Below, one piece after another: positions 10,833 to 36,143 of a DNA stretch of 64,000 nucleotides. Below the pieces are notes generated by a model. The model was not told the DNA's origin, did not search any database, and saw only the letters and a list, made by a program, of their open reading frames with translations. Location of the stretch: NCBI GenBank assembly GCA_000934665.2, contig JYFJ02001156.1, positions 1-64,000 of the forward strand, read 5' to 3'. The first letter of the stretch is position 1. The number at the start of each line of letters is the position of its first letter. This DNA comes from Catajapyx aquilonaris (lineage: Eukaryota). The position numbers and the translations under genes were made by a program.

Positions 10833-13800
10833 TTAATCCATACTATGATATGTTGCAGACACCGCCTGTAAAGAGTGAGAGGAATAATGAGCTAGTCATT
10901 TTCGGCAATGAAATGAACATAATTACCTGTATTCCACCTGGTCTCATCAAGGGACTCATTTGATCCAGACGGATTACATGACAGGCTCTGCACAGGAGAT
11001 GGCCTTCCAGAGGGTAACAACGCTTATCTGGTTCATCTGTCAGCTGCATTCCACAATCCTGCAATGACAATAGGTCGTAGATCCACTGGCCTTGTTCCAC
11101 TGGCATAACTGCATACATACCTCACACACATAACAATCTACATGAAAATCCTTATCCATAGATACTACTCGAACTGTTTCTTCTGTGCCCTGTAATAAGA
11201 AACTTCGAGTTAGAGAAGCAATTACATAATGTTTAAGAAATGAGCGAGTCTCGCAACTGTGCTAGCAAATATTTTATCCCATACCGGTACCTCACACCCA
11301 TTCCCTGCTCCACAAACAGGTCCTTTGTGAATACTTGCAACTTTTATGGCATCAATGAATTCCTTGTAACCTTGTAACTATAATTAGGGCTTCAATTCAT
11401 GCACAATTATCACGTAACCCGTCCATTTGGTGGTCCCTAACATGCTCGGGCAGGACCAGCGCGCCAGAAAGCAGGGAATAGGTGTGAATTAGTTGCTCTC
11501 TCCGCCCACGTAACTGTCTCACATTTTCAGTGTGTGCATATTTTATAATTTCTTGTTGACCTTGTGCGACTTAGCATAAATAGCGGAAAGGGAGGGAGGG
11601 AAAAATAAGCCTGACCACATGGACATTAACTTTTCGACAACCGAGTCCAGAGTTGGTATCCAGGTTATTAAAGCACAGATATTTCCCACTCCCCCTTTAA
11701 CGCCACATCTCTTTGGCAATATGACAAGGGTATCAGTAATGCCCACTCAATATTAAATGTCGGCCATGGTATTACTACATGGACCAAGAAAAGAAATTGA
11801 ATACTACAGATTTTCAATCATTTCCCATAAACTACTGGAGATAAAAAGTCATGCAGGAAAGAGCGTACAAATCACCATGGACATGGGGCAAGTAATAGAG
11901 AAAAAGGACTGTACGTGTTTTTGGAAACACACTGTACCCACCACAGAAGTGTATCAAACCAACTCAGCATAACTTTTCAAGGCATGCGCAAGTATTTGCA
12001 GTTGTACATGCAACAATAAAGTTAGTATGAAACACATAATATTCTAAAGCATTTTACTTGACAATCTGATTCGGTTATCCCACATGAAATTCATTGCCTT
12101 TAAATTTGTCTTAACACTGAAACTGACTGCAATTGCTTCCACATGCCGGTCACTCTATGAATTGTATTGCATATTTTTGTTCTTAAATTTCCCCAAATTC
12201 TCAGTGACCTCAGGCACATTGGAAGAAAATTAAAACTAATTTTCTCTGGCAAAATATAAAGCCATATTTACAACGCTTAACTTGCAAGTTCAGAAATTTT
12301 ATATACTTTATGCTGTATTATTAAAGCTCAGTTCCCAAGCTTTTTATTCTCATTGACCTCGGCAGAAACCAAAAAGTCATGCATAAGTTATTATGGTGTC
12401 TCCACATTTGCAGGGCATAAACCTGAATATTTCATTTGCAAGTGACCACAACCTTGAAGCACACTCGACAAAAATAAATTGTGCACATTTTGTGCAAGGA
12501 CCAAAATGTACCTCAACCGGAGTGATTCCTTTACCACATGCTGCACACTTCGGCGCGAACATTCTGTAACGGAAAACAGCTCAATCAGTTGGCACAATGG
12601 AAACCTATCGCCTGGTTCCTCGCCCTCACGGCATTTTGTTTGGATTCCTCCTATAGAACTGGTTTAGATTTCTCGAATATCATCACATTCAGAGGAGGTT
12701 ATCAGAAATAAATATGATGTACAAATTACACGTGCAAGCTTCAGTATTATCAGAATTGTTATTCACAAATAGTGGGGTTAGAATGTATCCAATACAGAAA
12801 AATGAACCCAGCCACCTTTCAACATGATAGAACAAATTTATCACACAAAATGAGTGGGTTACCTGTGGTAATCATTGACACAGTATATCTTGTTATCCAC
12901 ATCCACAGTGAAAGGAACGCCATCTAAGCATTCGTTGCAAACACAGCAGCGGAAGCATCCCGGGTGATAGGACTTTCCCATTGCTTGAAGGATCTGAAAG
13001 CGAAATGTGGAGAACAACATGATGTCACACAAATTAAGAAACAAATATGTCATCACTTGAGCGATTAAACCACGTGACAGCTCCTGCATTGCATGCACGA
13101 GTTGTTGCACTTTAAGAGGTGACATGAAGGTCAAGTGACCACGAACGCTCAATTGCCTATGAGTTGTAGCCTCCTGAGCTTAATTGGCAATTGAATAGAC
13201 AACCACTAGCCTCACTTTATCTATCTGAAGGTTTTGGTCTTAGCCCACACTACGTCAAACCGAGAGACTTGTAAAATGACTGTTACGACTGCAATGTTAT
13301 GTACTTAATGGCTGGCAGCTCGTGGGGTTAATACGGTCACGTCAACATGCTTTTTTTTCCTTTTCATTTTTTGCTATTGTTAGTACAAAGAGAGGGCTCA
13401 TATGAAGTAGTTTTAATGCCTTAAAGCCTGGGAGGTAAACAAGGGGAGTCAAGCTGGCCATAACATCTCTTCAGCTCTGTTTCTCCACAAAGCCCATTCT
13501 TAAAAAGGCATAATATTCTAATTCCACTGCGTGGCTAAAATTCATAAAGCCCCATGATATGAGATGTGAGCAAAAGGAATCCACACTAGCCTACTTCCTT
13601 GAACCATTTATTAAAAGCAAATATTGCGGTACTGGCAGCGAGAACTTTATCAGACATTTTGGCCAAAAAATAGTGTGCGAGATATTACTGTTTGTTCCAT
13701 ATCTAACTGCATGGAAATAAAGGCAAGGGTGCAATTCGGCAATGTAATTTGTTTTCAACTACTCTAACTTGAAAATCTTCTATAACTCATTGCTAGTTCC

Positions 13801-16800
13801 TGGGAAAATCTAATAATAGAAGTTCCATCACATCTAAGCTCATGGTTTAATTTGCCAATCTGTCTTGCTAGAAATGATTCCAAGTTAGCACTGCGCATTA
13901 TTGAGTCCCTAAATATTTATGAGGCACTGCTTGGTTCAATGATGAATGCAACTTACCATTTCCATAATCAAATGTCCACATATGGCACACTTCTCAGCCG
14001 TCTGTTGGAAACCAGAGTACTGTAAGAAAAACACCAAGTGTCAGATCCAACCGCAAAGGAACTCCCAAGTGAATGAAGGGGACAGGGGAAAAAAAAACAT
14101 GCTTAACTGACCAAGTAGTCCTCTTCACAGTACACTTTCCCATGCACATTGTAGAAGGCCTTTCCTCTGAGTGCCCGTCCACATGAGCAGCAGATGAAGC
14201 AATTGGTGTGATACAAATTTCCCATTGCCTGGCAGGCCTGTCCTGCACCTGTCACCTTCTCACCGCAAGTGTGGCAAATACCTGTAAAAGAAGGTAACAT
14301 TCAGTGGTGTGCCAAAATAACGCTGAAATAGTGCAAGCGAATAACACGTTCCGTTTCTGCACGCATCGCTTTTTATCTAAATGCTAAAATGCACATTCTG
14401 CATTAAATTTGTGCACTGCAAATCCTGGCAAAGTTCCATCACCTTTAACCACATCTGTGTAAACTCACCCAGTCAGCTGTACCCAACTGGTCCCATACAT
14501 TGCGCCTCACGCCCGATGGCAATTAAGCTCCGAATCAATCAGTTACACTCCCTTTTTTTCCTCACCCACACTGCTTTTTGTGCAACATACTCATCTGTTA
14601 AATCGGCCTGAATAAAGTGGTCAGTGTTGCATTAAGTTGTATTCATTACCATACTACAGCAAGGATGACAATGGCGAACGGTCAGGTGAATGACGGCCAT
14701 TTATATGGTTCCAACGAGATCAATTGGCATGCAATATTGTTGACATTTACAGCCTCCCTATATCTGTGTAGCCCACTCCTGGAAGTCACACACACACAAA
14801 AAAAAGGAAGAGAAGGAAATGCGGGTCCCAGAAGTCCCTGAGCCAAAATTGAATTCCTTCCCAACCTTCCCTGAATGCGGAAGCTAAATGAATCCCCCAT
14901 GCTCCTCCGTATTTTAAGAGAGAAGAAAATCCTGCCGCTCTCTTTCATGAAAGTGTGTGCCGCCACTCCCTTGATTTCTTTTACTTCTTTCATACAGGGA
15001 GCCGAATATTTTTTTTAAAAGGAGCATCCACATGGCCCAGATGACAAGTCCTAACCCTTTGACTGAAAGGGTTCTCCTGTTTCAAGTGAATATTTTATAT
15101 CATCCCATCACCAGCTAGCTCCAGCCTTACGTGTCACATCCACTAGGAGATGTCCCACATTACTGAAATTGATGCCTAGCTGGTCGACAGTGACAAAACC
15201 TCATATTTCCATGCAAAAATTCTCTACGCTGAACTTTGATGGTAACAAACCTAATTACGTTTCATCTCAAGTATGTTCAGACATTACTGTAATTATTTGT
15301 ATAAGCACTGAGGCCATTTTTTGCACTTAGTTGCATATTAAACTGGTTGCTTGAGTGAACAATCCGCAATTATTTCCTTGGCACCATCATGTACCAATTT
15401 AATCCTACTTAAGCCCGCCTAAGGCACGTACATTAAATCCGCGACAAGGTCTCCGGACACTTCCAAGGATTACTCGCTCATTAAACCATCTTATATCATA
15501 TCCTGTGTTTATAAGTCACTTTTTCCTTCCTCCTCCAAACGCCAAACACATTTGGGAGCAGACGGTGCTGATCGATTATCTCAAAAAGTGCGTGCCAATC
15601 GGTGCGTTTTTCAAACCCTTTTCTCACGAGTTATTCCCTCGAGGCTTACACCGAACCAATCGTATTTTCCTTCCGCGAAAATTACGGTATTTTACAATCG
15701 CAACAAAAAAAAAGCGCGGTTATTTTTACGGCCTCGAAGCCGCCTCATTTTTTTTAGTCGTCTGTACTGCAGCCTGTTCAAAAAAATGAATGAAGTCGCA
15801 CGTTGCCACACTTCAAACTCACACTTGTCCACAGGGATCAAGGACGCAGCAGCGGACATGTCCCTCGAATCATGACCTTTGACCCCCACTTTTTCAGGGC
15901 ACAGTCTCACACACTTAATGCGTATCCAAACCCGCGCACAAGACACAAACGCCGACCGACTCTTCCCCGTTTTTCAGGGGGTCTGTGAAACCCTCGTCCT
16001 CAATTTTCTGCCGACCCCCAGGACTCGACGCTTGGAAATAGAACCTCAGCTGAGACATGGCAAGAATTCTCTGCTGGCTTGGCTGGGGTGGTCGGTTGGC
16101 AAGCTGGGGGCATGGGGAGGGTCACATACACACTACTAGTTACACATGCCCACCAGATCGTCCCACGTGGTCAGAACAGGACAACAAGGTCGTGAGAAGC
16201 ATTTAGGTGTGGCTGGCACTGTCAAGGCGCCCAGATTGTCCAATATCATTGTGTCATTAAACCCCGGGGTGCGACATTGGGGGAGGGGGAGGGCAGGATA
16301 TATCGAGCGACGACGACGGTGACATTTTCCGACGGTCATTTTCCCCCGCCAGACCATTGGCATTTCAACAGACAATTGGGATGATCCCATTTTGGGCCAT
16401 GCCAACTGCCAACGATGGCCAAATTTCATCATCTTCCACACAACAAGAGTCCCAACATTTTTCAGTCGTGTCATGATCAAAGCAATATACTTGAAACAGA
16501 TCAAGGTCTTTTGATATTCCAGTGCTTCCGACGAATGCTGGGCGTGTGCGTAGGTCGAGGTAGGCCCGTGACCAATTGCTAAGATATGGAAAGGAGAGAG
16601 AGAGAGGGGGGGGGCNGGGGGGGGCTCTTGTGATACTCCTCCTGGTGTGCACCGCCTTTAATTTATCCGGTTTCAAGATCTCAAGGCGAACGGGGCATGG
16701 TCCCACACACACACACCACGTATATCTCATTACATCTCCCACCTTCTCTTATCCTGTGCACAAAGTACTCTACAAAAACAAAAACAACACGTGAAGTTAC

Positions 16801-19800
16801 CCCCATGCCACAGTTCAACACACTATAACAATACGGTCAGATACGATACTACCCACTTATCGCTTACTATTTTTAGCCAATAGAAATAAGATAATAATCC
16901 ATATAACTGAACACCCTACATTGTACAATTATTACACGAGCACGGACTGAAACCGTGCCAAATATTGGGTGGGGAAGAAGAAAAAAACAAACAACAAGCG
17001 GCCTTGTTTGTTTGGAGATTTACAGGAATCAACCGTGATTAGGAATTTAAAGTGGAAATTCTGTCAAGGATTTTTCTAAATATGCTGCCCACTCTATGAA
17101 CCTCATGTAAACAAGAATGGACACACACTGTACATATAATAACGGAATCGTAATTAGCGCAATGACGGATTAGTGAGTTTTACCGATGGTTAGTTCAATT
17201 TTTGGGACTACATTAATGCCCTTGTGATTAGTTATTACTTATTACGTACGTCCTTTACTTGCTGGTAACGAGGGTTTAATAAGCTTTGAACCCCGTTCGT
17301 CCTCAGTGGGAATGTCCTTTGCAGGTGCTGCTAATGGATTGAGGGGAGGGCCTTTGCCCCAAATTTGGGCGGGAGGGGTTCCAATTCGCCACAAAGATCG
17401 ATTCACACTCAACACTCTCTCTTTTTTACACCTGCATCACATTAGCTGGAAATGACCCATGTTGCCAAAACGCAGCAGCCACGAATCAAAAAAAAAGAAA
17501 AAAGGCTGACCTATCCTAAAGTCATCCCGGGTCATTTAAATTGCGTATTAATCAAATCTGACAAATACAGAGCCTCCGAGGCCATAAGGGTATCTTATCA
17601 TCATCATTACTACATACTACAGCAAATTATCGCTTACAAGAATCGTAAAATCGCCTACTGAAATGTACAACGTGTACTTAGTACTTTCATGTTATAATAA
17701 CACGATGAAATCCATACATAACAGCTTTCCGTTACATCCAGGGCTCGTTGTAGTCAGGTTCTATTTCACTAGTGAACGCGTTGCCAAAATTTGGCAAAAC
17801 GTGTAATCAGTATGGGAACTTTAATAAGATGTCCCGCCGATTTACCACGTAATGCTATTCTTTGCCCATAGATGGCGCGTCTTCCCTCTACACACTCATG
17901 CCACCCTCAGGTCGCGCGAGAGATGGCGATACTATCAGGTCGGACAAACATCCGACGGAGAGAATAAGTCTTTTAGTTAATTAACAGTCAATGGACTTTC
18001 ATATCGTGCCTTGTCCTATTGGTCGCCTATCTTTTCCTGTGGCTGGGCCATGCCCAATTCGTGCCAGGCCTGATCAATCCAAACAAGAGTGGGCCAGAGC
18101 CAGCAATATGTTTGCAGGCCCTCAAAAGACTCATCCTCTCCTTTTAAATTGGCCAGACTCTTCCTCTCCCCCTCGAGCTCTCCTGATGAACAATTTCCGC
18201 TTCTCATCGCATCCCTGCTGCATGTTGAGTGTCCACACACACACATTGTATATCGTGCTCGGTATTATAACGGGGGATGATGCTCAGCAATGGTTTACCC
18301 CCTCGAGTCGTCTTCAATTATGAAAAATCCGACAGCCCGCAAGAAATCGAGTTGGACCAGCAGCCTCCCAACTGGTCCTTCCACTTCTGGTGTGTGGGGG
18401 CTCCTTCTTCGTGGTTCTTCCGCCCACATTAACACGGGGGACTCCCAATATTCCAGGCCCGGTCAGACTAGTCACAACACGGGGTCGTTGATCGTGTCTT
18501 GTCCGCCCCTCCAGGGAGGGGACACCCTGAGGGAAGCCTGCATCCTCACTTTCAATTGGCCAACACATTTATGGAGACGTCCAGATATTATAAGCATGTT
18601 GGTCTTCTTTGGAAAAAAATAAAAATACAGGCGTGGAATGCCTGAGAATTCAAGGCTGATATCGTAAGGTTATTGCGAGTGGAAAAACACCTGTTTTTTT
18701 ATGTGCACAATATTGCAACACAATTTTACACGTGTTGAAGAAGGAACAGGTGCAATGTGTCGGACATGTGTGTTGATCGAGTGATATGCAGTCCAAAATG
18801 ATTAACCTCGTTTTTAGTGCTGGTAACAATACTCGAAAAACTGAATAGTGACAAAGATCGACCACTTGTTTTGAATCGGCTATTGATCACGCAACCCCAA
18901 CCAATAGTGATCTAACGCAATTTCTGCTATTGGCACACCTGTTTGTCACGCGATCCTTATCAGCCTTTCGTAATAGCTGCTGTCATGAACAATTCTGGAC
19001 AGCTGGTTTACTAATGGTCGTGCGACCATTGATGACAATGGCAGTGAACATTTCTGTTGTGGTCTGCAGGGCGGACAAGTTGACTCTCAAGTAACAGGGT
19101 CTTCAACTATATACATGATGGCGTCCTATTATGCGCCCAAATTTTTCTCGTGATGATACAACAGGAGTGAATATCTCCTAATCTCCTGGTAAAATCATCA
19201 CGTCCTATGTTTTCATCCTCCTCCTGTTAGCACCGGTTGCGCAACAAATGCAAACGAGCTCAGAGGGAAAGTCATTTTCCGTGCATTTATTCTCCTAACG
19301 ACAATTCAGTGTATGCAAACACCAGTTTGCGAAGTTTCGCGGAAAACCCGATGCAAACTGAAGCTACGGGAAAAACTCCTGCAGTGTTTTGTTGGTGAAT
19401 TAAATGAACGATTTTGAAGCGCTTTGGCTTGGCCGTCCCCGAAGGCATGCCCGCGCAACCAAATTCCCTTTTTCCTTCCCACAATCCAAACCTCACAGTT
19501 GAATGGAATTTCTCACGCTACCCAAAAACCGCAACCCACTGAACTATGCTCAGCCCCAACAAGTTCAGGTTCAAGCTACATACACACACAAACCGGGCAA
19601 AATAACTGCCAACAGCTTTTTGGCCTTATTTGCTAATTCAAGCCGCAGCCTCACAATGCAAGGAATTCCTGTCAAAGGTGGGCCGGAGCATTCCAGATAT
19701 AACCGCATGCCGTGGATGGTCCAGTGCCAAGAGGCTGGGTCATGGGGTCACCGGATCATTACTTTATTCAGCCTCCTTTGCCAATCAGACCAGTCCGCAG

Positions 19801-22800
19801 TATGTACTACAGCCGCAATCAAGTTCAAGGCTGCGTCTCAACAATGGCTTACATAAGTGCTCTCTATCATTGCTAGTCTGATGCACAATAGCTGCAGTGC
19901 GGCATAAAATCCCTTTCGCTTCTCCTCAACTTTCTAAGAACACTGAAAGTGACATGTAACCGGAGATCTGTGTTGCAATGCGGGTCATGCGAATTTCACT
20001 CTTTATCAGGACTTCCTCCACGATAGGGGGATATAATCGGTATACTCAGAACCGTCTGAGTGAGCGGTCGCAATTTTTGGCCATGACTTGCTCCTGAATG
20101 TCGGATGATTCATTCGACCCACCTTCCCTGCCCTCTCCACTCACTCTGCATGCAAGTTTATGGTAATGCATTTTCATGTGTTTATACTCACCGAAATATT
20201 CCCCCTCATCCTCCTGCTTCTCCATTTCTTCCTCCAGTTGCCTGGTCAGTTCCTCAATCTTCTTTTCCGCTTCGGTTGGGCCCTGGGAATAAAATGGCAT
20301 TCCATTCAAAAAATGCTGGGAAAGCTCATCTTATTTACATAATATTGTGTAATTTGGCAGCACAAAACCTCTTCTTTTTTTTGCAACATATTTTTAGGAC
20401 AGAAGCTGCTCCTCATAATCATACAAATGTAATATACAAAAGTACGGTCTATTTAAGCAGAGTTACGACTGTAATCTACATTGCGTTTAAAAATTATGAA
20501 TGTTTATTACGGCCAGTGCATTTTTAACAAAGCACATTTATCCATGATCTTGATTGCTATTTAATTGTCGCCAAATATTTTTTCCGAGGAAGAAAATGCT
20601 GTTTATGGTCAATTAAGTCCATTCAGTAATTGTGATAAAAGTTGACAGAACTCACCGCTGGTCTAGGTGGTGTGACGCTGTACGGCAGCAATGCTTTCCC
20701 AGTGCTTGGCGAAAACATTGGCGATTTGGCCATGTCGGGTGAGGTTGCTGTCTGACCCAATCCATCCACTGCCACTGCTGGAACCGCAGGCACTGTTTCG
20801 TAAGGTTGAGCTGGTAACTTGGCCACTGTTGCCATCTGCCTTGCTCCCATCATCCGGGTCGATGTTGAAGTCATGCCAGGACTGTACGGACCCAAATTGT
20901 TGACAAACCTTGACGCCGACACTGGGACTGGGTGCGGTTCACACCTTTGCGGTTGAGGCTGGGTTGTGTAAGGTAGTTCAATCCTCTGCGGTTGTTGCTG
21001 TCCAGTATAAGCTATCTCAATCCTCTGTGGCTGCTGCTGGCCCGTGTACGCTAGCTCAATCCTCTGGGGATGTTGCTGGCCGGGATAAGGTGGCGGCGGT
21101 GGTAAATAACCAGGTGGCGACCTGTAGTCGTACTTCATATCATGCAGATTCTCATATATGGGTGGTGCCTCGTACGGTGGGTTCTTAACTTGTCGGCGAT
21201 AATCTTGGACAGAAGGCGCAACATATATGGCCTCCTGTATGTAGCTGGATCGTGGGCTTGAATGCTTCGAATCGGCTGAACTAATGCTGGATCTGGGGCT
21301 TGATCTTCCTTCATGGGTGGGGTATGGAGGTGGTGGCGGAACTGCACGCAGGTAGTATTCTATGTTTTCATAGATAGGCGAGTCTGGGGGCGGCCCCTGA
21401 GCGTAAGTCACGCTTCCTCTGGGACTATTTGACCCTTTGCTAGACCCACTGAGGCTTGAAGCGGGGCTGCTCAGCCCATTCTTCCCATTATGAAGCGAGG
21501 ATAACAGCTCTGGAGGCTTTGGAGTTGCAAATCGAGATGCAGCTACAATGTGGTCTCGGTCGTACACTTTGTAGTCTGGCGAGGCCGTGACAACATTGGG
21601 GTTGTCCACAAGGAAGCTCTCGATTGCGCCCATTGGACGGGATTTGTCAGGGCGACGGACGGGTGAACTGGTAGCACTAGCTGGTAAGGAACGGCTGGTT
21701 TCAAATTTCACGCCAGGCAGCGGTGCATCCGAGGTCAGCAGCCCACTGTAGATAACAAATGCAAAAACAGTTTGGATCAGTCAATAACATCTTAAAACTG
21801 ATAAAAATGGTGAGCTCTCAAGTTACAATCTTTCTTCAAAATAACCGTTCTAAGAATCTAGTTTCATTTCCAAAATGAGTCTGGGAAAGGCCTGCAATAA
21901 ATTTGCTATCTTTTTTTTTTGTTAATTCTGATCAAGTCAAATCCTTGCATGAAGGTATGCCATGTAGGTTTCTAAGGAACAAGGTGAGATAGCTCACTTT
22001 GTATGTTTGTGTTCAGCTACCAGATGGGAAGCTCGATAAAAAAAATTAGGCATCCAAGACCTGACCCTGAATGAATAGCACCTCAGGCAAGGGCGGTACG
22101 AGTTCCTATCTGATTTGTATTATTGTGAGGTGAGATATGTCCGTGTTTTTAAAAGCAACTGATGGTGTTTACATCAGCAATACCTGACCAATTATTTTGC
22201 ACGTGGCCGCATTCACTTGGTGGTATTAATGATGATCACTCGTTTGGTTCAATTCGGTAAATTGATAAATCGCTGTACAGCATAATCCATATGAGCAAAT
22301 CGTGGTCACGGCATAACCTTGAGGCAAAAGCATTATCACACCGACAGCCTGGACCAATGTCGCAAGACTACAAATTTTTCTATACAAACACTGACATTGC
22401 TTCCTCACAGACAATGCAGACCTTGACACCCATTCTTGCATACTACCACATCGAACAAAATTATCTCAAGATACGTACTTGTGTAATGTTCTGTACGACT
22501 CTGAAACCACACTTCGCACGGTTTTAGCCAACCCGGGGGCACTGGGCAGCAAATATTTAAAATTTTAATGACTGTTGGCATCACTGTGGTTATCCAGTGT
22601 TGCCAACCAAATTCGTTCCATGTTGGCACCGCTGCGTTTATCCAGTGGTGCCAACCAAATTCATTCCATGTTGGCACCCCTGAACCTTTAATAGAACAAG
22701 TGGACCTGGTCCAGTTCCCGTGTGAATGCCAGCGGTCCCAATTCTGGCTAAAATGTTTTGTCCTCCCTGGCTACTTTACCTGGACATGGTCCTGGCCTCG

Positions 22801-23033: not shown

Positions 23034-24546
23034 TGCTCCTTGATCAGGTCATCCTTCCCATCCGCCCAGGCAAAGTGGGAGAGGGCCGCACAAAACTCCG
23101 GCCGAACACGACGCGTTCTATCGCTGCTGTGCTGCTGACTCCGCCGCCTTCCGCGTGACGTCACCACTGGATTATTGTGCCAGCAGTTCACAAGTGCTGC
23201 CGCCAGGTGGAAGCATCGTTCTGCTCACCCGGTGGCATCTGGCGGACGAACCGCGCACTTCGAACGGAACCCGTTCCAGAACCGGCCCACTTTATTTGCC
23301 TACTAATTGTCTTTTGATTTGTGTAATTACGCCTCCGTAGAGGCGCTCAAAAATTGCCGTTGTCCCGCTATGTTTCAAGCGGGACAAGGCGGGGTATTGG
23401 GAAAAGTTTTCAACTAGCAATAATCGCCCCTCGGTTGGACCTCATTGGGTACGATATCGCCACTGCGCAAAGCTGATGTTTCCAGCCGCTCAAAGAGGGT
23501 CTAGGGCCACCCGATGGACCGGGTCAGGGTTCGGAACGGTGGGGATGACAGGTCATCACGATTCACACGTCGCGTTTACACGTAATCCATTGAGACGACG
23601 GGATGGACTGGTCCATTCGGCACAATTTGCATGTGCCAAATTACTGATCGTACTGTAAGTTGAACGTAAATAATTCCTCAATAATTACACTGATTGCTGG
23701 ACACGCTGTGGAGCCATCTAGCGGTGGCTCTATTAGCAGCTATTGACAACCGCGATCGTTGCTATTGAATATTAGTTTTTCATATTAGTCTCTGATTTGT
23801 CGAGTGGGGAGCAATCATGTCTAATGGCATTTATTATTTTTAGATCTTCAGCAACACCCAAGACACGCCCAAGGTTTACTGGTGCAAGATGCATCCTTTG
23901 GATGGTTTATCGTCTATCTACTCTATCATGATAGTCTATCAAAATGGTAAACGCCAATAATAAGTTACTACTCTCATGCGTCATGCCCGATTGCAGCAAC
24001 GAAATTACCGATTCGATAGCTCCTAACAGATCGTTAACACACGGGCTCCTAATGATCCAATAGGAGCTATCGGATTTATGTTGACAGCGAATTCGAAGAT
24101 GGCATATAGTTGCTTAATAACAATTAGTGTTGTTGCAACGACATATATTACGTTATTTATGGATCAGAAAATATCCGGTTAATCAGAGTGCTACAGGACA
24201 GTATTTTGCGGTATTTTGGCCATCCGAGCAGGCACCACAATAAAAATTCGCAAACTTGCTCTTGTCACCTAAGCATTTTGTGGTCTTCTAAAAATTTAAT
24301 GCGGGTTTTTTGTTGTTTAATTCGCTAATTGACATATGCATTTTTATTAATTACGTGGTTATAGTTCCACAATAATTATGTTTCCTTATGATAATTGGCA
24401 TGTTATTTGAAAATGCAGTTTTGGTCTTAGTATTATCCATGTATGAACTAAAAATACACTGCGATCTTGCGCGACAGAAACCGCCGGAATAAGAACAACA
24501 AATAACACGTAACTGTATTTACGGACCCAATTAAATACATTAAACC

Positions 24547-27500
24547 TTAGTGAATAGAACCAGTCGTCGAGACCCAAACGTTATCTCTGGACCATTTGAT
24601 CATCGTCTCCGGAGATCTATATAAAAAGAGAAGCTGAGCGAACAAGTCCTCCTCCAGGAAGAAGTCGCGGCTTTCTCTCACCAAGTATATGTCCAGACAC
24701 AACTGAAATCACACACACAATATTTTTAAAGAGTCAGTAAATTTTTATACATTATATAAAAACAGATTTTTTTTTTACCTGTAATATTCTGTCAACGTTC
24801 GGCATGTCTCGGTACATAATTATGGGCGAGATGTTGAAGAACATTCTTCTCACCACATTGCCAATGACGAGCACGAAGGTGGTGTACAATCCAATAATTC
24901 TGAGGGGGGAAATGTGCAAGGTGTTTTAACACAACATGCACTATGCTTGCAGTGGCATATCGAGAAGAGCCGACATGACTTGTTGTCAGCGACATTTCAG
25001 CCTTTTTTCTCACCCTTGTCGCGATATGATGTCGAGGGAGCTCCAGATCATCTTCTCGCTGAAGACGAACAAGTCCAGCCCCTCGTCGCAGTCGGCCTTC
25101 CATGAGGTGCAATCGCTCTTGATGTGCCACCATCTGACGTGTTGCTTCATGTGCATCTCGATTCTGATCGGGGCGAAGGCTCCATCCTGCTCCTTATCCC
25201 TCAGGGACTTGGCCGGGTTCACGTCCCCGTACTGGGTCACCTGGATCGCCCTCGGGAACAGGGTGTCGAATTTCAAGGACAGTCTGATGGCCCCGTTCCC
25301 CGTTGTGTCCAGGATCCTGGCCAGGGCCACCCTGTCCGGGTTGCGGGTCACCCCGTCGCCAGAGTAGGCCGGAACGACGGTCACCCTCTGGTCGAAGAAC
25401 TCCTCCGTCACGTTCTCGCTGTCGCTCTTCTTCGCCTTCCGACGGGCGACCCTGAACGTCAGCTCCAGTCGCACATCGTCGTCTGCAATGGTCAAATTAA
25501 GGGAGCACTTTGCTGACACTTCATAGCTTGCTAAAAATTGCAGAGAAAGTTGCAAAACTAGATTGCGATGACCGGTTGTAAGTCAGTGCTGTAATGTCGC
25601 AAAGTCATAACCTGTTAACGCAATAATAGGATAATACTATCAGCACAGTTTACTGGATTGTACAGCGTGTATCCTAACTAATCAGAGCCACCCATGCGAC
25701 TCGGCTGTTCAACGGGTTGTCTCACTTACAGGCTGAAGTGTCGACTCGCTCTGCAGGCAAATCAAAGCCTGGGAGTCCTTGCTTCATGTAAACGTCTGTA
25801 TAACTGACTGTTAGAACATGCTTAGGTATAAAAACCCCTCTTTACATAACGCAAACCATTCAGTGTGTGCCTGTCAGGATCCATCAGGATTGGGCTGATT
25901 TGCGCAGAAAGAATAGGGCCACCCAACCACTGAAAAACTCACCGGAAGCGATCCACTCCTTCAGATTGTCCATGGAAGGAGGCGATATGTTCCAGGTGGA
26001 CATGGAGCTTCCGTTCATCTTGACCATCACCACGTTGTGGTTGTCGAACCTGGACAGGAAAGTGCGCATGATCTCGTAGTACGACCTGTCTCTCTGCCTC
26101 TCCCACTGCTCCGGGACCAATCTGGAAAGCACAGAGCGAACAATATGGTATACGAATTGGTTGGTGCATGAACTTACTCTTTGATGTCTTCTTGATGCGC
26201 GGCTAAGTGGAAGAAGGGCGCGAAGCCTTCGAAGGCCAGCTCAGTTTTGACAGCCACTGGCGGGTTGGCCACGCTGACTGTGGCGCCTATGGTGTAGAAG
26301 CCCAAGGGAAACCAGACGATCCCAAGCAGGAGAAACAAGAGGCCGCATCCAACGAAGACCTTGTTCTTCTTCTTCTTCTTCTGGCCCACAAATTGCGGGA
26401 AGTTGTGCTCGTAGATGCGAAAGCACTGTCACACGAAAAGTTTATTTTACTTGACGACACGTAAAAAAAAATGCAATCGTTAACAAGCAGCACTGATTGC
26501 AGCAAGTGCGTTTACCTTGAGCTCAAAAGTCCTTGCGAAAATGTCCTCAACTTTGAGCCAGTCGAATATGCTCATGGAGGTGTCGGTCATGATCCAGTCC
26601 ATAAGTGCTCGCAGCTCATACAGAAGAGGGATCAGCATGAAACTGCGGATGTGGAAGTTTTTGAATGACTCTGCACAAGTCTGCCCACACTTTTTTTTTC
26701 TCTCTTACCATTTGAAGAGTATCATGTGCAGTATGGTGTAATGCTTGCAGATGAAGTTGCCCAGAATCCGAGTCGGGTATCCGGCCCGGATCTGAATCGC
26801 CGAGAGCAGGAAGTAGATGCACTTGATGAAATACCACACCCGAGGTGCAAACTGCGACCTGAACGACCTGTCCAAAAAAAAAATTGGGGCAAAAATTGCA
26901 AAAAAAAAACAAGCAAACAATGAGAGCAGAAAGAGTGCGTACTTTCCTGTGAGGTATGGCATGGCCACGAAGATGTAACCGTGGACCACGGTGATGCTGA
27001 GGAGCTGAAACACCAGCTTGCCCCTGATGAACTTTCTCAGGTAAATGGCTCTGTCCACCATGATCAGGAAGAACTGAACCAGGAGGAACACTAGGAAGTT
27101 CAGGGGCACTCGGTTCTCCTTTATGTACGACTGCACTTCCCCTTGGCCCTTTAACGAAAAAGGTGCATTATTGTAACACACCAATTGCTCAGGCCCGCAA
27201 TGGAACTCACCCCGAAGGAAGAGAACCAGAAGAGGATGATGAGGAAGTTGATGAAGTCGCAGAAGAACATTGGCGAGTACACGTCCGCGCCGCTCTTCAG
27301 CTCCGGATGCAGCAGATTCCTGAAGAAGTTCTTCATCTCCTTCACACCTCGAACTGACCTGCGCATTAATCATGGAGAGGGTCATTTGTCCGCCTCGAAA
27401 GTGTTTTCGGTACACACCCACCTTGTCCCTATCTGCGATCCGACCTCGATGACTTGAGCTGCGAACCTCCTGATGATCAGGAAGACGGATGCTGCTGGGC

Positions 27501-30500
27501 CTCGGTGCATGGTCGTGGTTGCAGGGTTGCTGACAGGGTAACCCTTGTGCTCTGGCCTGCGTCGAATCCCGGTCATGCTGCTGTCCTCTGTGTCGGGCGG
27601 AGACGGTTCTCCAGCAGGAGGGGTTGGAAGCATTGTGGTGGTGCTTCCAGCAGCCGTTATCCATGAATCTGAGGATTCGTGCGGTGATGCCCTGTTGATC
27701 GGAGACAGAATGGTGAAGGATGACCTGCTTTGGGTGACTGGAGTGTCTTGCTTGGATCTCTCTGGAGTTGTTTTAGCCGAGGGTGCAGACATGGCCCTCT
27801 GGGGAACCACGGCTTTGCTCCCTGGCGACGGGGTCCTCTTGGGCGAAGGTGTCCTGCTGGCTGAGGACTTGCGGGAGCCAGGACGGCGGAGGTAGCCCAG
27901 AAAGGGAGAGATCCGACGTCGCTTATTGCTCGTACGCTTCGGCTGCTCCTGCAGGGCGTCCACGAACTTCATGTCGTGCTTTACCTCCCACTGGCCCAGG
28001 GATCGAAGGATGTGCCTGTATGCAGAAGCCATAGCTCAGCGTAGCTCATGGACAGGTGCACGCCCTCGCGATTTGAGCCTCGGTCGCACGACCAGACGGT
28101 TTGCGACAGACAAAAACTGTACTGTAAGTCCGGTCGGAAAGCGTCATGGTCGTGCGACCGAGGCTCAAATCGCGAGAGCGTAAACAGGCCTTTAAGGCCG
28201 CTTCACAAACTCGGCGTTGCGAAAGCGTGGCGTGTGGGTCTTACGCTCATCGCACGCAGAAAGTCCACCCGATTGGACGCCAGCGCAACGCCCGCGCTCG
28301 GTCATCGCACGCAGCATTCGTGAATAGCCCTTCGCAAATTTTCCGCTCTCCGTACGCCCCGCTCGCGCAAATCCGGGTTTGTAAAACGGGCATTTCGCCC
28401 CGCTTTCGCAACGCCGAGTTTGTGAAGCGGCCTTTACGTCTACTAACCGGTGTGCGAAGACTGCAATGAGAAGCACCAGGTCGTAGACTGAGCTGCTGAG
28501 TTCGGTGTCTTTCTCGTCCGTGGCGTAGAACCTGAGAGCCAGCATGTCCTTCACCTCATCGGGCACGAACTGGAGCTTGAGAAGGCACTTGATCAGCACG
28601 ATGAAGTCCGTGTAGGTGATGACCGTGACCCAGAAGGTCCTTCCTGGTCTGGGCACGGCCAGGGAGCCCCAGAAGAAGACCAGCAATGGGAGTGGGAGGG
28701 AGAGGAGGTTGGCAGATATGATGTGGTTCAGGAAGATCATCAGGTAGCAGAGGAGCTCGGTGTGGGACATCACCAGGCACCACAAGCCTTTGCCCAGGGA
28801 CACCAGCAGGTGCTTCTCGTCCATGGTTGAATACTCTTCTTTGCTGCAAAAAAATAGTTAGGCTATAACGTTGAAATGGGGCCTATATAAGAGACAGGTG
28901 AAGTTTCAGATACCTCTTGGTCATCGCTGCTCTTCGCCAACGAGTCGCTGCGGCACAGGTTCCCTTCTTCGGAAATTCGGTCACAGAACATGAGTCCAGT
29001 TGCGTCGGAGAGCTGCTTTCCACTGCCAACCGCACTACCCGTCTGACTCTGAAAAACTGGGCGTCAGCATCATCTCTGTCGTCCTTAACAACAGCAACAA
29101 AAAAAGAAGAAGCTGCGACTATGTGACTGATAAGATTTGGAGTTGCGGCTTTTTTCTCCCCTCATATAGAGACCTGACTTTTCTAGAAGCGCTTACGGTC
29201 TGTCTAAGGCGTCGATTTTGGACAGGGACGTGCTGACGGCTTCCTCGAGGTCCTTCTCAAGGGTGTTCCTCCTCATCCTGTTCTCCTTCCACTTGCGCAT
29301 CTCCTCGGCCAGAAACTTGGACACGTACCTGTAGCTGGCGGACAGGTGGTACAGCCAGTTGGTCAGTCCTATCCCGACGCTGATCACCATCTCGAGCACG
29401 AACACCGCAAGTTGTTTCAACGATTCCTTCCGTTGAGCTGCGGGTTCATCCATGTCATATCAATAAGCCAAAATGATGCAAGGCAAATGAGAGCGGTCTT
29501 ACCCCAAGTTTTTTTCCCTGACGGTGGCTTGGGGCCTCGAGGGATATTCAGCGCCGTAATGTCCAGGTCCTCCTGGGTCATGGCCGTCTCGTACCTGGAG
29601 ACGGGGATCAGCATCTGCAGGCTCCACTTGCACCACATGCTGCGGGTGTTGGATCGTCGTCTCCTCAGTACGCCACCGACGCCTCTGGCTTGTCTTGCCA
29701 GCATGTTCGCCGTTTTGATGTTCGTCTTCGCAGCAGCACGTATCAACTGGGAGGTTTACAAAAAAAACGGTGGCAAGTGCATGTTCACATATTAATTGAC
29801 AGCGTGGTTCTCACCTCTCCCAGCTGGTATCCTGCAATGGGCACCACTTCCGTGAACCCTTCCTCGTCAAACATGTCGTTGATCGTGGAGGCCGGGTCGT
29901 CTTCGAACATGTGGTAGTCTCCGGAGCGAGTGACTGCAAAGCAGGAAGAATATTCAGATGCGGAAAATAAACTGAATAAAAAGGCGCCGTCTAACCGTCT
30001 TCGTGGATTTCCGTCCGCTGAGCCACGAATGTCCTCCGGTTCTTCTGCTTCAGTTGCGTCATCTTCTCCTTCAGCTTCAGAAGAATCTTCCGCTCCAGCT
30101 CCTGCTCCTCCTGAATCGAAGCCTGAACCAGCTCGTCGTACAGGATGGCTCCGCTGAAAAGTGCAAAGTTGGACAACTTCTCTCATTATAGTCTCCCAGG
30201 GACGAATCAAAGTCCGGAAGAGAGACCTGTTGGCAAAGACGGCCTCGGCTTTGGCGTTTTCGACCACGTGGTAGATGTAGTAGCTGCTGAGGATGCGCCG
30301 GCAGAAGATGAGGAACCAGAAGGACAGGGCGTCCCAGAACATGGCGCTCACGTCCTCCGGGGTCATGCACGATTTGCTCCTAGCTGCGGAGGGCAACAAA
30401 TCAACGGGAGCACAGTGCTCAGCTGAATCAAGATTAAGCCGCCTCACCATCGGGCGTCTCGTGGCGAAACTGCAAGGTGCTTATGTCCAATAGACAAGTG

Positions 30501-33500
30501 ATCCCGATGGTCTGGAATGCCCAGCAGATCCGGCTATGGTTGATGTACAGGCATCCGATCAGGTGCAGGCAGGTCTTGCAGCCGATGACCACCACGTTGT
30601 AGGTCAGCAGTCCGTTCCACCACCGGATCATTTGGGACCTGGTCATCAGGTAGAAGTCCGTTCCGCGCCAGAGGAACATGAAGCTGCAGAAGAGGTAGCC
30701 CAGGGCGAAGACGTTGACGCTGAAGGTGCCGGCCATGTACACGATGGCCAGGGTCACCCAGTAGAAGGAGATGAACACGACTCGCTTGAGGCTGTCCAGC
30801 CAGGACTTCTGGTAGGTCATGAAGTCGCTGACAGGGGTGTCCCAGGGGTCGCACACGTCCGCGGCGATTGGCACGTTGTCGCCTCCAGGGTAGCCGTTGG
30901 GCACCGGCTGTCGGCGGAACACATCCTGCTGGTGACAGGCCAGGGCCAGGAGGAATACGTCGAACATCATCAGCCATGGGTCCAGGGATTCCGGATTGCA
31001 GTCCGGGAGGACCAACCAACGCTGCAGAACAGGGTCCAGCGACCACGGGTACACTGCAGCCGCACAGTAAATCCAGTTCAGCACAAACGACACTTGATGT
31101 CAAAAAGGATTAAACTCACGTTTGCAATGGGTGAGAGGAAGCCCCATGCACATGATGTACTGCATGAGCGTGATTACTGCTACGCATAGCATGAAGAAGG
31201 GCCATACTGTGGACAGGGTGTGTCTCTGCAGAAGGAACATGCCTACCAGCCAGCCAGAGTAGATCACCGCCACGATGTCCATCCGATTGGCGATAACCAC
31301 CACCAACCATCCCAGAGTCACCTAGTCACCAGTTTCAGTTTAACGATAGTGATCACATGTGGTGCTCAGCAGTTTACACACCTCGACTCCGAACCGGTAG
31401 AAGATGTAGTTGGCAAAATACTTGATGGCCCCGACGAGTCCGGTGTCCAGATCCTCGTAGGTGACCCCATGGAAGTAGGTGCCGGTCGGGAGCACTGGTG
31501 CGTTCGGGTACTTGATCCTGGTGAAGTACTGGTGCAGGCTGACCACCACGTGGATGGTGGTGACCACCACCACGGCAATGTTCCACTGCACGTACGAGGT
31601 CAGCTTTTCCTCCTTGCTCAGACCGATCCACTCCAACACAGTCGGCCTGCCCTTACGCAAATTCTGCGACGAGAAATAATTGTTACGAAACTCTTGCAAA
31701 AGGCAATAAATATATGAAATCGCACGTTTTGTGGCAGAAAGATCCTGTCCGCCACTGGACGTGACGACACTGACATGTTGGCGTCATCCGACAAGTACCG
31801 GTCAAAATAATTGTCCTGGAACGAAAACCAGACAATAATAAGTCTGTGCCATGCAGTGTAAGCCAGTCTGCACACTTACAAGCAAGTCCGGAGTGATGAA
31901 CTGGATCTGGAAGATCATCTTGGAGAGAAGCACGACGGAGGTGATCACGGACATGAAGAAGACGATGACCTCTTTGACGGCGGTGTTCGAGGGCAGACCC
32001 ATCACCACCATGACCATGAAGACCATGTTGATGGCGCAGACTTCCTTCAGGGAGGTCACAGCCGCGATCAGGAAGACAATGTCCAGGCTGTGGATCTCCA
32101 GGAACCTCCATATCAGGGCCTGGACCAGCTCCACAGCATCTTGCAGCTGCTTCCACTCGGACGTCCTCTCGGAAATGTCCGAAAGGCCGGCACCACCAGC
32201 AATGGGCTTGTCCGCCTCCCTGCCTCGGGACAACGGCTCGTGAACCACGACCTCGGTCACCTTGTCCGTTTCATCCTCCTCGGACGTCGCCTTCAGAAGC
32301 GCAATGTCCATCTTGCAGCTGAAACATGTCGGATCATCTAACAGACCACAGGCAACACAGGGCTCGAGACGGACTTACTTCTGCAGGATGTCGTATGTGT
32401 TCAAGAAGTCCTGGTGGAAGTACTGCAGCTGTATGACCGCGAATATCAGGAAGAGCGTAGGAGGCAGCAGGCGCACCAGCAATGTACCAGCTTCGCCGTA
32501 CACCTCCAGACCTATGTCGTTTTGTCTGCCAATAAAATCTGCAGGATAAGCCCCCCAAAAAAACAACACATACAGCACAAAAAGGCAAGAACCGGGCTCA
32601 CAGTTCGGCAGGGATGCCCATGTCGACCCAGTACCCTGGAAAGTTGTCGAACTGGTAGGTGTAAATGGCCACCAGGACGAACATGGAGTAGAAGATGACC
32701 ACTATCCAGAAGGAGTACATGATGCTGGTCCACAATCGGTACGACACCTGACGCAAAAGACACGCGAATCAGTCTCTCCAGAGAAAGCTTCCAAATTAAA
32801 ACAAACCTGGAAGGTGAGTATGAAGAGGAGGAAGAGCGCCGTGTACACGATCCTGTAGATGGCCACCTTCTCTCCGGTCAGACCCACAGCGAAGAGAGTG
32901 ACGGACACCACCCAGATCCAGGACTTGCGGAGGAAGTCCCTGAAGCTCAGCTCCACGTTGATGTTCCATCGCTGCATGGTCAGTCTGAACTCTCTCGACA
33001 GGTTGCTGTACATGCTCTTGGACCTAACTGAGCTGACGTTTTCGTCGCGATTCTTCTCCAGCTCCTCGATCTCCTTGTATCTCTGTCGCAGGGTCAGCCA
33101 AAAGATGCTGCTGAACAAACTCTGGAAAGGTAATTAATGGTATGGGCATCGCTAGTCAAACGGGGTGAGGGATGGTCAAGGTTGGCAATTACGAGTAAAA
33201 TTCGCTGCAGGACGCACTCTTGTCCCCCCCAAAAAAGGCGGTGGCACAATCTCACCCCACCTGGCACAATCTCACCCCAATTGACGGGTATATTAAACCA
33301 AGAGACCTGGACGGCTAGAGGCGCTCCGGGATGAACCTCGTATCTGACAAGTCCGAACTGCTTCATGTTCCAGCCCTTCATCCGGACTGGAAGCTCGTCG
33401 TCGTTCAGGTCCAGGTTGAATACGTACTGGGCGATGAGAAGAAGGGTGCTGTACACCACCAGAAGAGGGGACATCTTGAGCAGGATGCCCCTCCTGTCCG

Positions 33501-36143
33501 GAAGCATGAAGAGCACGCAGGCTCCAACTAGGAAGATGAAGGTCAGCCAGCTGTGGTACGTGATGCTCCAGAGCATCATGCCTATGTTGGTGGCCAGGTA
33601 CGATATGTTGGCGATCATGTGCCAGGTCGCGCTCAGGATCGGGAGGATCACTGTGTGCCACCTGGATTCAGACGTGGTCTCTTCCAGGGAGTCTTTCTCG
33701 TGGATGACGTCCAGACTCTGCTGGATTATGGTGACCGAGACTTTCGGGTACCCGTCGTCGTCGTCGTCGTCGGGGATCTCGTCGTCGTGGGCGAACTCGG
33801 CCGACGACACCATGGACACGTACAGACAGAGGAGGGAGAAGGGCAGGGACAGGAAGCCCCATTCGATGCCCTCTGATATGGTCAGGTCAGAAGGGTCCAT
33901 GCAGCTAGCACCAAAGACCAGCCGAAGACCCAGCAACCTGAGATCAGACGGATGTTAATTTCGGGGGACGAACTGGCCCGATCCGGGCACGTTCTTTTCC
34001 CCTCATGTACCTGGCTCCCAAGGATTCAACCGGCATGGTATTGGCGATGCTGGGCTGCTGGTACAGGAAGATGACCAGGACGTGCATCGCAGGGTACAAG
34101 AAGGCGGAGCGACACAACAACGTGAACCCTCTGCCTATGCTCTTGTTGCAGGCCAGCCACAGGCAGGTGGACAGGAACATGATGAAGTACGGTGTGGCCA
34201 GCAGGGACGGAACCACGTACCCGGACAAGCCCAGAAGCAGGATGGTGCAGAACTTTCCTGATTTATATTTTTAAAAAGTTAGCATCCTTCGTACTGGACT
34301 GTTTCACGACACTTTTTACAATCTTGTCATGGACGTACCTGCGGCAGCCGGAGATAACTTGGTCTTCTCCTCCAGGTACTCGAAGACGTCGCTCCTTCTG
34401 GACGACGTGTCACAGCTGGCCTCGCTGGCGTCCGTGGATGGCTGTGTTTGGGCAGCGTTTTCGGCCATGATCCGGATGGTGTTGGCGTAGACCAGTACGG
34501 CCATGTCCGGTACCACCCACTTCAGGGCTTGGTAGCTCAGCTTCTGCATTCGCACGAAACCCAGGTGCCAGTATATCATCTCCTTCTCTTCGCCTAGATT
34601 AAATCGCACACCGTAGTACAACTGACCTCAGTATTGTCCATTAAAATAATGTACATTGAACTTACAGGTCTCGTACAAGTTGGAAGATGGCTCCAGCAAG
34701 AATGTGACCACCTGGAAGCTTCCTTGGCACATTATGTTCACCATGCTCACTACGATGCTCCAGTTCAGGTACCTTGCGGTTTTTCCTGAATAATTGTGAA
34801 TTACGTCAAAAAAATGTTTCATTTCTGCCCTAGAGATGCACATTTTATTGGTATAATACCTTCCATGTTCATTTTGTCAACTATTTTTGACAATTACGTC
34901 TAGTTGTGAGTCACTTGGTTCAGAAATATTACCCCAACCTTTACAACACAAAGTGAGTAATATCGTACACAAATATAACTGACGAACGTTAAGCATATAG
35001 CCTACAGTATGTGCTGCAAAATCAATATTTTTGATAACTACCCAGACATTGACATAGTGATTTTGACCGGATAGGCCTAATAACCATAAAACATTTCCTG
35101 TTGAAGAGAGCTTGCTTACCTTTCATGGTGTCTTTGTCCACGGCAGGCACAAACGGTGACATGAATACAAGCAGCAAATATGGAATTGTCAGGGCATTTT
35201 GTCGAATGGAAGCGCCTGGAAGAAAAATGTAAACAAAATACCATTTGCAGTGTCCGGCAACTAATGGTATAATAAATGGCCACATCATATTCTCCCAAGG
35301 TAATAATACCGTGGACATTAGCTCATTGGCAAGTCAGGATGTTACACCAGAAGGGGGCTATTGAGTTGCAAATATCAATTATGATGTTCTAGTACAGTTC
35401 CATGCATTACAACAAGCTAAATCATTTGTCGATGTCATTGTGGACACCAACATTCAATTGATCTCTCATTATGAGTGCAACATGTATAACAATATTGGCA
35501 ACATATTCATTGGTCATTGAATATAATTTCGCAGTGTCAATCAGTCTGCATGAAAAAACATGGCATAATTACTACAGTTTGCTAAGTACTAATATTTCAA
35601 GCGAGTTCATATTCATCTCAAAAGCAACATTCGCAAACTTGTAGAACTACAAACACACGTACACTAGAGGTATATGTTGCACAGTGAAACTTGTCTATGA
35701 CAGACCTGGATTTAGTGGAAACTTGTCCATTGATTTAACTTTTCTTTGCTCGTATGTAGCAGAGAATATTTAAAGTACTTTGTCATACAAATCTGTTCAC
35801 TTCAGAACAGAACGGATTTGCTGTAACAGTTAGTCTTCAACTTTTATGCTATTGAAGGAACTCATTTTTCTCTACAAATCATTGCAAAACTCCTACAAAT
35901 AACAAATAACATACCGTTACGTTACCTTGCCTGATCCAGTATGAATCAACTCAAAATATCTTTGGAGAATACTCTGGACAAGCCCAATGGAGAAACTCCA
36001 GGGTTCCAAGGAACACAGGCTGAAGACTAATGCACACTAGACAGGTTTCAATGTAACAACAACTATTCATTTAGCTACTCACATGCTGTCAAGAGGATAG
36101 GGAGTCCAAACGAGATTAAGACACTATACACAGTGTGAGACAT
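24547..36143 (-). CDS. Piezo: Piezo-type mechanosensitive ion channel (divergent), ~2,500 aa, 31 coding exons
   Basis: Exons 36143-36083, 35215-35120, 34785-34666, 34593-34339, 34257-34011, 33937-33307, 33121-32807, 32747-32602, 32525-32379, 32318-31880, 31815-31726, 31663-31382, 31321-31120, 31053-30448, 30383-30227, 30153-29996, 29933-29815, 29746-29503, 29437-29197, ~29048-28914 (acceptor uncertain), 28843-28448, 28015-27422, 27358-27211, 27148-26943, 26867-26709, 26642-26516, 26425-26178, 26121-25943, 25482-25014, 24899-24779, 24702-24547; the frame stays open throughout. Hallmarks: [100 protein letters not shown]…[14 protein letters not shown]. Confidence 0.95.
28060..28191. mobile_element. 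Left-truncated fold-back MITE in a Piezo intron
   Basis: Inverted arms CTCGCGATTTGAGCCTCGGTCGCACGACCA (~28065-28094) and TGGTCGTGCGACCGAGGCTCAAATCGCGAG (~28147-28176). The right end reads …TAAACAGGCCT, then TTA. Confidence 0.65.
28195..28433. mobile_element. PIF/Harbinger (Tourist-like) MITE in a Piezo intron
   Basis: Perfect ~33-bp TIRs AGGCCGCTTCACAAACTCGGCGTTGCGAAAGCG and CGCTTTCGCAACGCCGAGTTTGTGAAGCGGCCT, with a 3-bp TTA TSD at 28192-28194 and 28434-28436. Confidence 0.88.

Follow-up and report, generated by a model that had tools for sequence, protein, structure and literature searches.

The 64,000-nt stretch of Catajapyx aquilonaris contig JYFJ02001156.1 analyzed here (hereafter the window) carries a Piezo gene on its minus strand, the two terminal exons of which (24547-24899) encode the inner pore helix and the C-terminal domain (CTD). 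According to the reading we favor, to which we assign a probability of about 0.68, this is the pore end of an intact, transcribed and fast-evolving Piezo of arthropod type, its product is likely a mechanically gated cation channel, and its substitutions at residues studied in mouse Piezo1 reflect lineage-specific drift. An earlier examination of the stretch from its letters only (the sequence-only reading) had taken the same segment for the charge-altered pore of an otherwise intact Piezo paralog. Our results indicate a Piezo that is divergent but otherwise ordinary, as opposed to a channel of a new kind.

The earlier translation of 24547-24899 proved exact; the segment comprises two minus-strand exons, and their codons were verified against the DNA. 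Its features are as follows.

24779-24899, minus strand: exon 28, inner pore helix plus first part of the CTD, 40 aa after a split glycine codon, ungapped against mouse Piezo1 2465-2506
24703-24778, minus strand: 76-nt GT-AG intron (GTAAAA...TTTCAG), skipped exactly in a contig of sequencing run X5
24547-24702, minus strand: exon 29, CTD, 51 aa followed by TAA, with PDB matches at E 1.3e-16 to 2e-13 and a Pfam Piezo_cap match at E 3.3e-19
24857-24859, minus strand: AAT, Asn at mouse Piezo1 K2479, from DNA and alignment
24806-24814, minus strand: TAC CGA GAC, Tyr-Arg-Asp at F2494-E2495-E2496, from DNA and alignment
24634-24636, minus strand: CAG, Gln at K2528, from DNA and an alignment counted from 2505

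The leading glycine of exon 28 is encoded by GG at 25015-25014 and A at 24899, across the 114-nt upstream intron. The open reading frames (ORFs) of both terminal exons match Pfam Piezo_cap (E 6.5e-15 and 3.3e-19).

Splicing and transcription of these exons were shown by record 17 of run X5 (322 nt), which joins 24526-24702 to 24779-24899 with 0 mismatches and lacks precisely the 76-nt intron. A spliced transcript thus carries the N, YRD and Q codons (AAT, TAC-CGA-GAC and CAG), as the sequence-only reading had proposed to verify. None of the listed runs is on record as RNA, and the kind of run X5 is unstated; it behaves as RNA-derived owing to the spliced contig. Contigs of runs X1 and X2 span 24300-28089 with 0 other letters; these two runs are possibly the source of the assembly and hence not independent, while run X5 comes from another sample and study. 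It covers 8 of 30 bins, and exons uncovered there are uninformative. A further contig of this run, record 18, joins 25144-25435 to 26008-26121. The 572 nt skipped in this low-depth contig (26007-25436) have no GT-AG ends, are flanked by a GGAAG direct repeat and shift the frame, and the skip is probably an artefact, a template switch or an aberrant transcript.

Residues were assigned by phmmer searches against PDB chains, with 5z10_A (2,547 aa; the same sequence stands under 6b3r) as the reference; 6b3r is used with mouse numbering in the available part of PMC13157073. The inner-helix exon aligns without gaps to 5z10_A 2465-2506 and the CTD exon to 2505-2545, with PDB E-values down to 1.3e-16. 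The window has in common with mouse Piezo1 (PDB 5z10, 6b3r and others) and Piezo2 (6kg7) the succession of domains (TM1-24 through anchor and cap to inner helix and CTD), the ungapped inner helix and CTD, and the residues E2133, L2475/V2476, R2482, M2493, P2498 and P2536/E2537. It differs from mouse Piezo1 by K2479N, G2483R, E2487N, F2494Y, E2495R, E2496D and K2528Q; its cap is barely alignable with those of the two mouse proteins, and overall identity to them is well below 40%. The cap matches PDB chains weakly (E 0.14-0.19), and the counterpart of the DEEED patch in that alignment is DKEQD at best. The previous placement of R at E2495, N at K2479 and Q at K2528 agrees with these ungapped alignments, and a misalignment of the arginine, which had been named as a ground for giving up the idea of an altered pore, did not occur.

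Both sequence signatures expected of the family are present without gaps: the anchor motif PF(L)xELR, aligned to mouse 2129-2140 with E at E2133, and the inner-helix/CTD signature G(I/L)Y...R...P.VD...D(I)(Y/F)LVRE...LEE.L...F(L)(Y/F)RSPE. The vertebrate-type pore signature (K2479, E-E at 2495-2496 and K2528) is replaced by N, R-D and Q. Judging from the aligned segments described below, this signature, GKFVR...IMFEELP...AKLIFLYRS, is not family-defining, because 36 of 159 other segments are non-basic at 2479 and 35 of 159 are non-acidic at 2495 (37 and 36 of 160 with the window counted).

The survey drew on two samples. The first, obtained with the CTD exon as HMMER query against 1.84 billion representatives (E<=0.001), consists of the best 150 of 330 matches; the second, the best 120 of 1,184 matches, came from a region search that used P0047, a tick protein, as query. 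Names for the carriers of substitutions were added by a third search. An 80-residue inner-helix/CTD segment was obtained from 219 of 264 proteins and from the window. Six segments were left out as out of register (the mis-joined P0024, P0027, P0038, P0040 and P0060, and also P0071), and the remaining 214 gave 160 unique ones, window included. The counts below come from lists in which arthropods are over-represented and which are ranked by likeness to the queries.

E2495 column: D 76, E 48, T 10, R 6 (the window and 5 others), N 5, S 5, Q 4, V 2, M 1, K 1, L 1, A 1
E2496 column: D 99, E 56, Q 2, H 2, R 1 (acidic in 155 of 160)
K2479 column: R 83, K 40, Q 16, S 6, N 3 (the window, P0016 and Blattella germanica P0194), 12 others
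F2494 column: F 128, Y 16, I 11, V 3, W 1, L 1
K2528 column: K 153, Q 3 (the window, P0115 and P0141), R 2, S 1, A 1

R2482 is kept in 148 of the 160 segments. Arginine at E2495 occurs in Patella vulgata P0272 (IMFRELP) and Mya arenaria P0001 and P0265 (ISFRELP), and lysine in Solemya velum P0151. At K2479, glutamine is found in the bees Xylocopa and Halictus and serine in the bugs Cimex and Clastoptera. K2528Q is the rarest of the changes. The sequence-only reading had conceded that its case would weaken if such variants were common in invertebrates. Since each substitution is found in other natural Piezos, this is partly so: the columns vary widely and each change recurs, yet the exact string YRD is present in none of the other sequences examined. 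The vertebrate 'critical' residues K2479 and E2495 are not conserved in invertebrate Piezos, and E2496, R2482 and K2528 nearly are, so that the survey helps to sort which Piezo residues are structurally essential.

The roles of K2479, E2495/E2496 and K2528 have so far been based on mouse Piezo1 mutagenesis. Voltage dependence of inactivation is abolished by K2479Q and K2479E, as stated in the available part of PMC5938756, and the accessible text of PMC13157073 gives a reduced open probability for K2528R. An anion-selective '9K' mutant carries lysine at S2150, N2151, C2154, I2164, S2168, E2172, S2491, E2495 and E2496, according to the portion available of 10.1101/2024.08.23.609388. The functions that had been attributed earlier to K2479 and to E2495/E2496 were thus found in print, the former in PMC5938756 and the latter in a review, each as far as its available part goes.

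Counted over these nine fenestration positions, a list derived from mouse in which positions 2164-2172 were placed by MAFFT alignment only, the window reads FDKEFEIRD with a net charge of -2. This is the mode of the family, seen in 95 of 134 sequences (range -6 to -1); the mouse-like Piezo1 reads SNCISESEE, with a net charge of -3. Compared with the typical insect pattern xDKxxEKDD, the window is without K at 2491, has R for D at 2495 and has an extra E at 2164. On the mouse list and the MAFFT alignment, positive charge thus appears redistributed, not added, at the fenestrations, which argues against a switch of ion class. The notion of a charge-altered pore therefore held in that the acid at E2495 is replaced by R; it did not hold for the rest of the site, as E2496 is kept as D, so that of the two acids just one is lost, and the fenestration sum is typical.

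By analogy with mouse Piezo1, the product is most probably still a cation channel with mechanical gating. Ordinary lineage-specific drift at positions variable in invertebrates would account for N at K2479, Y-R-D at F2494-E2496 and Q at K2528, with the total charge near the intracellular fenestrations kept by changes elsewhere. As the residue at K2479 carries no charge, inactivation would be expected to show weak or no voltage dependence, as in the mouse Piezo1 mutants, and this small voltage dependence is the best-founded prediction by analogy. Loss of one of the two portal acids may somewhat reduce Ca2+ preference, conductance or sensitivity to pore blockers, and the changed K2528 position could possibly lower open probability; no change of ion class would be expected. 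A gating shift from these substitutions is plausible on the same comparison. If gating or permeation is indeed altered, the gene offers a natural mutant for the roles of K2479, E2495/E2496 and K2528. K2528Q and the recurrent basic residue at E2495 are the points most worthy of experiment. To describe the segment as the charge-altered pore of a special paralog nevertheless overstates the case, because the positions vary in invertebrates, one portal acid and the other tested determinants are kept, and the fenestration charge is typical.

The identification of the locus as an intact Piezo gene, already made in the sequence-only reading, was borne out by the presence of all Piezo Pfam domains in order and by a stop-free 29-exon model.

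24547-35318, minus strand: Piezo gene, provisional model, ATG at 35318-35316 and TAA at 24549-24547

The model was built with a dynamic-programming script scoring codon usage, homology and GT-AG sites; it gave 28 exons, and one further in-frame intron added by homology brought the number to 29. The final version has 7,614 nt, 2,537 aa and 0 internal stops, and all 28 of its introns (49-432 nt) are GT-AG. The claim of a gene free of stops and frameshifts across 31 exons is hence supported, for this model, as regards both stops and frameshifts, but the count of 31 could not be confirmed. Still, 31 exons are plausible, and additional in-frame, stop-free introns may be hidden in the model. The 2,537-aa product aligns with residues 25-2561 of P0043, a 2,601-aa Piezo, and similarly with P0178 and P0235; it falls within the family range of about 2,100-2,900 aa and aligns end to end, the 5′ end being provisional and the 5′ exons (35318-34666) the least certain section. 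A first model was dropped because two repeat-bearing introns had been read as coding, and a 45-nt in-frame stretch (31691-31647) considered as an intron was too short to be accepted.

Pfam families PF24871, PF15917, PF23188, PF24874 and PF12166 make up a complete Piezo set in canonical order, colinear on the minus strand, with matches in ORFs between about 33.9 kb and 24.5 kb. All pass the Pfam cut-offs: Piezo_TM1-24 at E 6.7e-44, Piezo_TM25-28 at 1.2e-24 and 3.2e-11, THU_Piezo1 at 5.8e-34, Piezo_THU9_anchor at 2.7e-36 and Piezo_cap at 1.1e-10 in addition to the two values given above. High-scoring segment pairs (HSPs) obtained by tblastn from 21 full-length Piezos are colinear across 35228-24586, and the top summed score among these representatives belongs to P0047 of Ornithodoros turicata. 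Looking up the TM25-28 exon in the ESM Atlas returned only generic Piezo-fragment clusters, with scores <=0.92 and a recognition value under the stated guide, and did not narrow down the taxon.

The alignment and phylogeny that the sequence-only reading had proposed were carried out, and they set the window, with its very long branch, among the arthropod Piezos. Two maximum-likelihood trees were computed from the last 1,250 residues (quick IQ-TREE, LG+G4; 57 and 41 rows). Both place the window within the arthropod clade, with a Shimodaira-Hasegawa-like approximate likelihood ratio (SH-aLRT) value of 100 in one tree, and as sister to Pancrustacea with support of 90-94; a tool warning marks the placement of rows with branches as long as that of the window as unsure. 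The best identity to any fetched Piezo is 31-39%, and nothing above 85% identity to the CTD was found among the best 150 of the 330 library matches. Vertebrate Piezo3, as described in the part available of PMC13228305, was dropped as a candidate because the window groups with arthropods, not with vertebrates.

Constraint was evaluated over the last 560 aa, in which 93 of the 108 columns that are >=90% conserved in 135 others are kept. The median of the others is 107, nematode-type Piezos keep 88-92 and Rotaria keeps 77. The open 7.6-kb frame, the spliced transcript and the kept columns fit a functional, fast-evolving gene better than a pseudogene. Within exons 22-29 we also noted an invariant P changed to W in the linker from cap to inner helix (IWSSLDII vs. 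the usual FPxxL) and an invariant D changed to N.

With the Piezos of crustaceans, springtails and insects, among them those of Cherax, Penaeus, Folsomia and Allacma and PDB entry 9w7x (presumably Drosophila Piezo), the window shares the anchor FDWLK and the CTD motif EEDLFA. Nearly all arthropod orthologues, by contrast, carry D/E-D at E2495-E2496, and many of them K at S2491, where the window has R-D and I, as well as E at 2164. The window resembles Patella vulgata P0272, Mya arenaria P0001/P0265 and Solemya velum P0151 in having R or K at E2495 followed by an acidic residue. These mollusc proteins, however, form another clade, near vertebrate Piezos, and unlike the window carry arginine at K2479 and lysine or serine at K2528; in the aligned sequences and trees, the basic residue at E2495 is of independent origin in the two groups. 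R or K at this position occurs in at least three separate places in the trees, namely among the molluscs, in P0076 next to P0047 (a paralog of Ornithodoros turicata), and in the window, and is thus recurrent. P0047 (named 'component-like') and its sister P0076 (IMFREMP) are long-branch second Piezos, yet they nest in ticks and not with the window. Another long-branch second Piezo of arthropods, Drosophila Pzl (CG45783), was compared by its description only, as given in the available part of PMC4352887; judged by names, no Pzl was among the 380 fetched proteins.

In the bivalve predictions P0151, P0001 and P0265 we observed two tandem inner-helix/CTD modules at the C-terminus, the first with K or R at E2495 (ISFKELP, ISFRELP) and the second canonical (VMFEELP, IMFDELP). 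These could be alternative 3′ exon sets of which one is used at a time, or else adjacent paralogs that the gene prediction has merged.

Several results weigh against a drifting but ordinary arthropod Piezo. The end branch of the window, 1.75-1.84 against a median of 0.39-0.5 (3-4 times the median length), is the longest in both trees, and 15 of the 108 conserved columns are changed, including K2528 and the P and D that are found in all 135 others. Arginine at E2495 is rare (5 of 159 other segments). K2528 is K in 153 of 160, and even K2528R reduces open probability in mouse Piezo1, as stated in the accessible part of PMC13157073. The combination of N, YRD and Q is found in 0 of the 159 other unique segments. 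From R2482 to P2498 the net charge of +2 is the maximum, common to 5 of the 160 segments, and the nine-position count that looks typical is itself made on a mouse-derived list, with 2164-2172 fixed by MAFFT only.

A rival explanation, in line with the sequence-only reading, is a functionally specialised paralog, in which the portal R, neutral K2479 and Q2528 had been selected for altered selectivity, rectification or inactivation and a canonical Piezo elsewhere in the genome performs the standard task; we regard it as unlikely. A very long branch inside the arthropod clade is what duplication would be expected to leave, and no inner-helix/CTD segment in the sample is more positively charged than that of the window. 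Ticks provide a precedent for a paralog pair, with Ornithodoros turicata P0160 and the divergent P0047, whose sister P0076 has R at E2495; a divergent Piezo-like gene, Pzl, exists in Drosophila according to the part of PMC4352887 available, and changes at K2528 and K2479 affect function in mouse Piezo1, as the accessible parts of the mutant studies indicate. On the other hand, a second Piezo was not found in a search limited to the 64-kb window: only 15 of 3,456 tblastn HSPs (380 Piezo queries, E<=0.05) lay outside 24500-35400, all of them weak (E>=0.004), with no credible inner-helix/CTD copy among them. No orthologue sharing the motif appeared among the best 150 of 330 matches in the library of 1.84 billion representatives, the net charge at the fenestrations equals the family mode, and each substitution also occurs in Piezos named by NCBI as the ordinary Piezo of their species. 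A broader version, in which an arthropod Piezo lineage, possibly an old fast-evolving paralog, combines a neutral residue at the voltage-sensing K2479, portal R and Q2528 with voltage-independent inactivation and altered Ca2+/monovalent permeability, rectification or block, seems to us rather doubtful. If it were true, the window, the mollusc R/K cases and the tick-related paralog would together make up a 'basic-portal' class of Piezo pores that has arisen repeatedly.

The long branch and the changed columns, K2528 and the invariant P and D among them, could also mean relaxed constraint in a gene heading to loss of function, its odd pore residues being neutral or mildly damaging drift. The cap that barely matches known caps and the low-depth X5 contig with its frameshifting, non-canonical skip would fit this as well. 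However, the 29 exons, with 7.6 kb of coding DNA in all, contain no stop or frameshift, the splice sites are canonical, a correctly spliced transcript contig is present, and the conserved columns are kept no worse than in nematode-type Piezos; we thus consider decay improbable. That the unusual codons stem from sequencing or assembly error is least credible, to the point of being negligible, as the X1 and X2 contigs show no other letters, the independent X5 contig agrees and no letter differs within 24547-24899. An intact, fast-evolving arthropod Piezo with lineage-specific drift at its pore therefore remains our preferred reading.

Upstream of the pore exons, the Piezo model contains the following further features.

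26516-26642, minus strand: exon 24, anchor segment, ungapped against mouse Piezo1 2125-2166, with the E at 26617-26615 corresponding to E2133
26868-26942, minus strand: in-frame, stop-free intron of 75 nt (GTACGC...GGACAG), placed by homology, GT-AG with a pyrimidine tract
25014-25530, minus strand: exon 27, the bulk of the extracellular cap (CED), strongly diverged, Pfam Piezo_cap E 1.1e-10
28078-28434, strand unassigned: highly repeated element within the 432-nt intron, summed contig depth about 7,600 vs. about 35 in the flanks (run X1)
33166-33290, strand unassigned: second highly repeated element, in the intron after exon 5, depth about 2,600 vs. about 35 (run X1)

Reading through the 26868-26942 intron would add 25 false residues to the last transmembrane unit before the anchor; they form an insertion between adjacent residues of PDB Piezos and are missing in 17 homologues. 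A search with the cap exon gave no match among proteins of 334-2,000 aa, a length range outside which full-length Piezos lie. The element at 28078-28434 shows many joints and loose ends, and the second one has loose ends at 33166-33291. Copies of both high-copy intron repeats also occur within run X5 contigs, and both are open in frame long enough to mislead ORF-based exon calls.

Three features lie outside the Piezo gene. At the left edge of the window (2-346, plus strand) we found the end of an ABC-transporter nucleotide-binding domain with its signature and Walker B (Pfam ABC_tran, E 2.8e-8). On the minus strand, 10843-21780 contains LIM exons (Pfam LIM, E 2e-10 at 12859-13179), and a proline-rich open frame of 385 aa lies upstream of them at 20623-21780. 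The two probably belong to one gene adjoining Piezo, which we assume, as a guess at its name, to be zyxin- or LPP-like. The single N of the window, at 16616, gives an X in two overlapping minus-strand frames.

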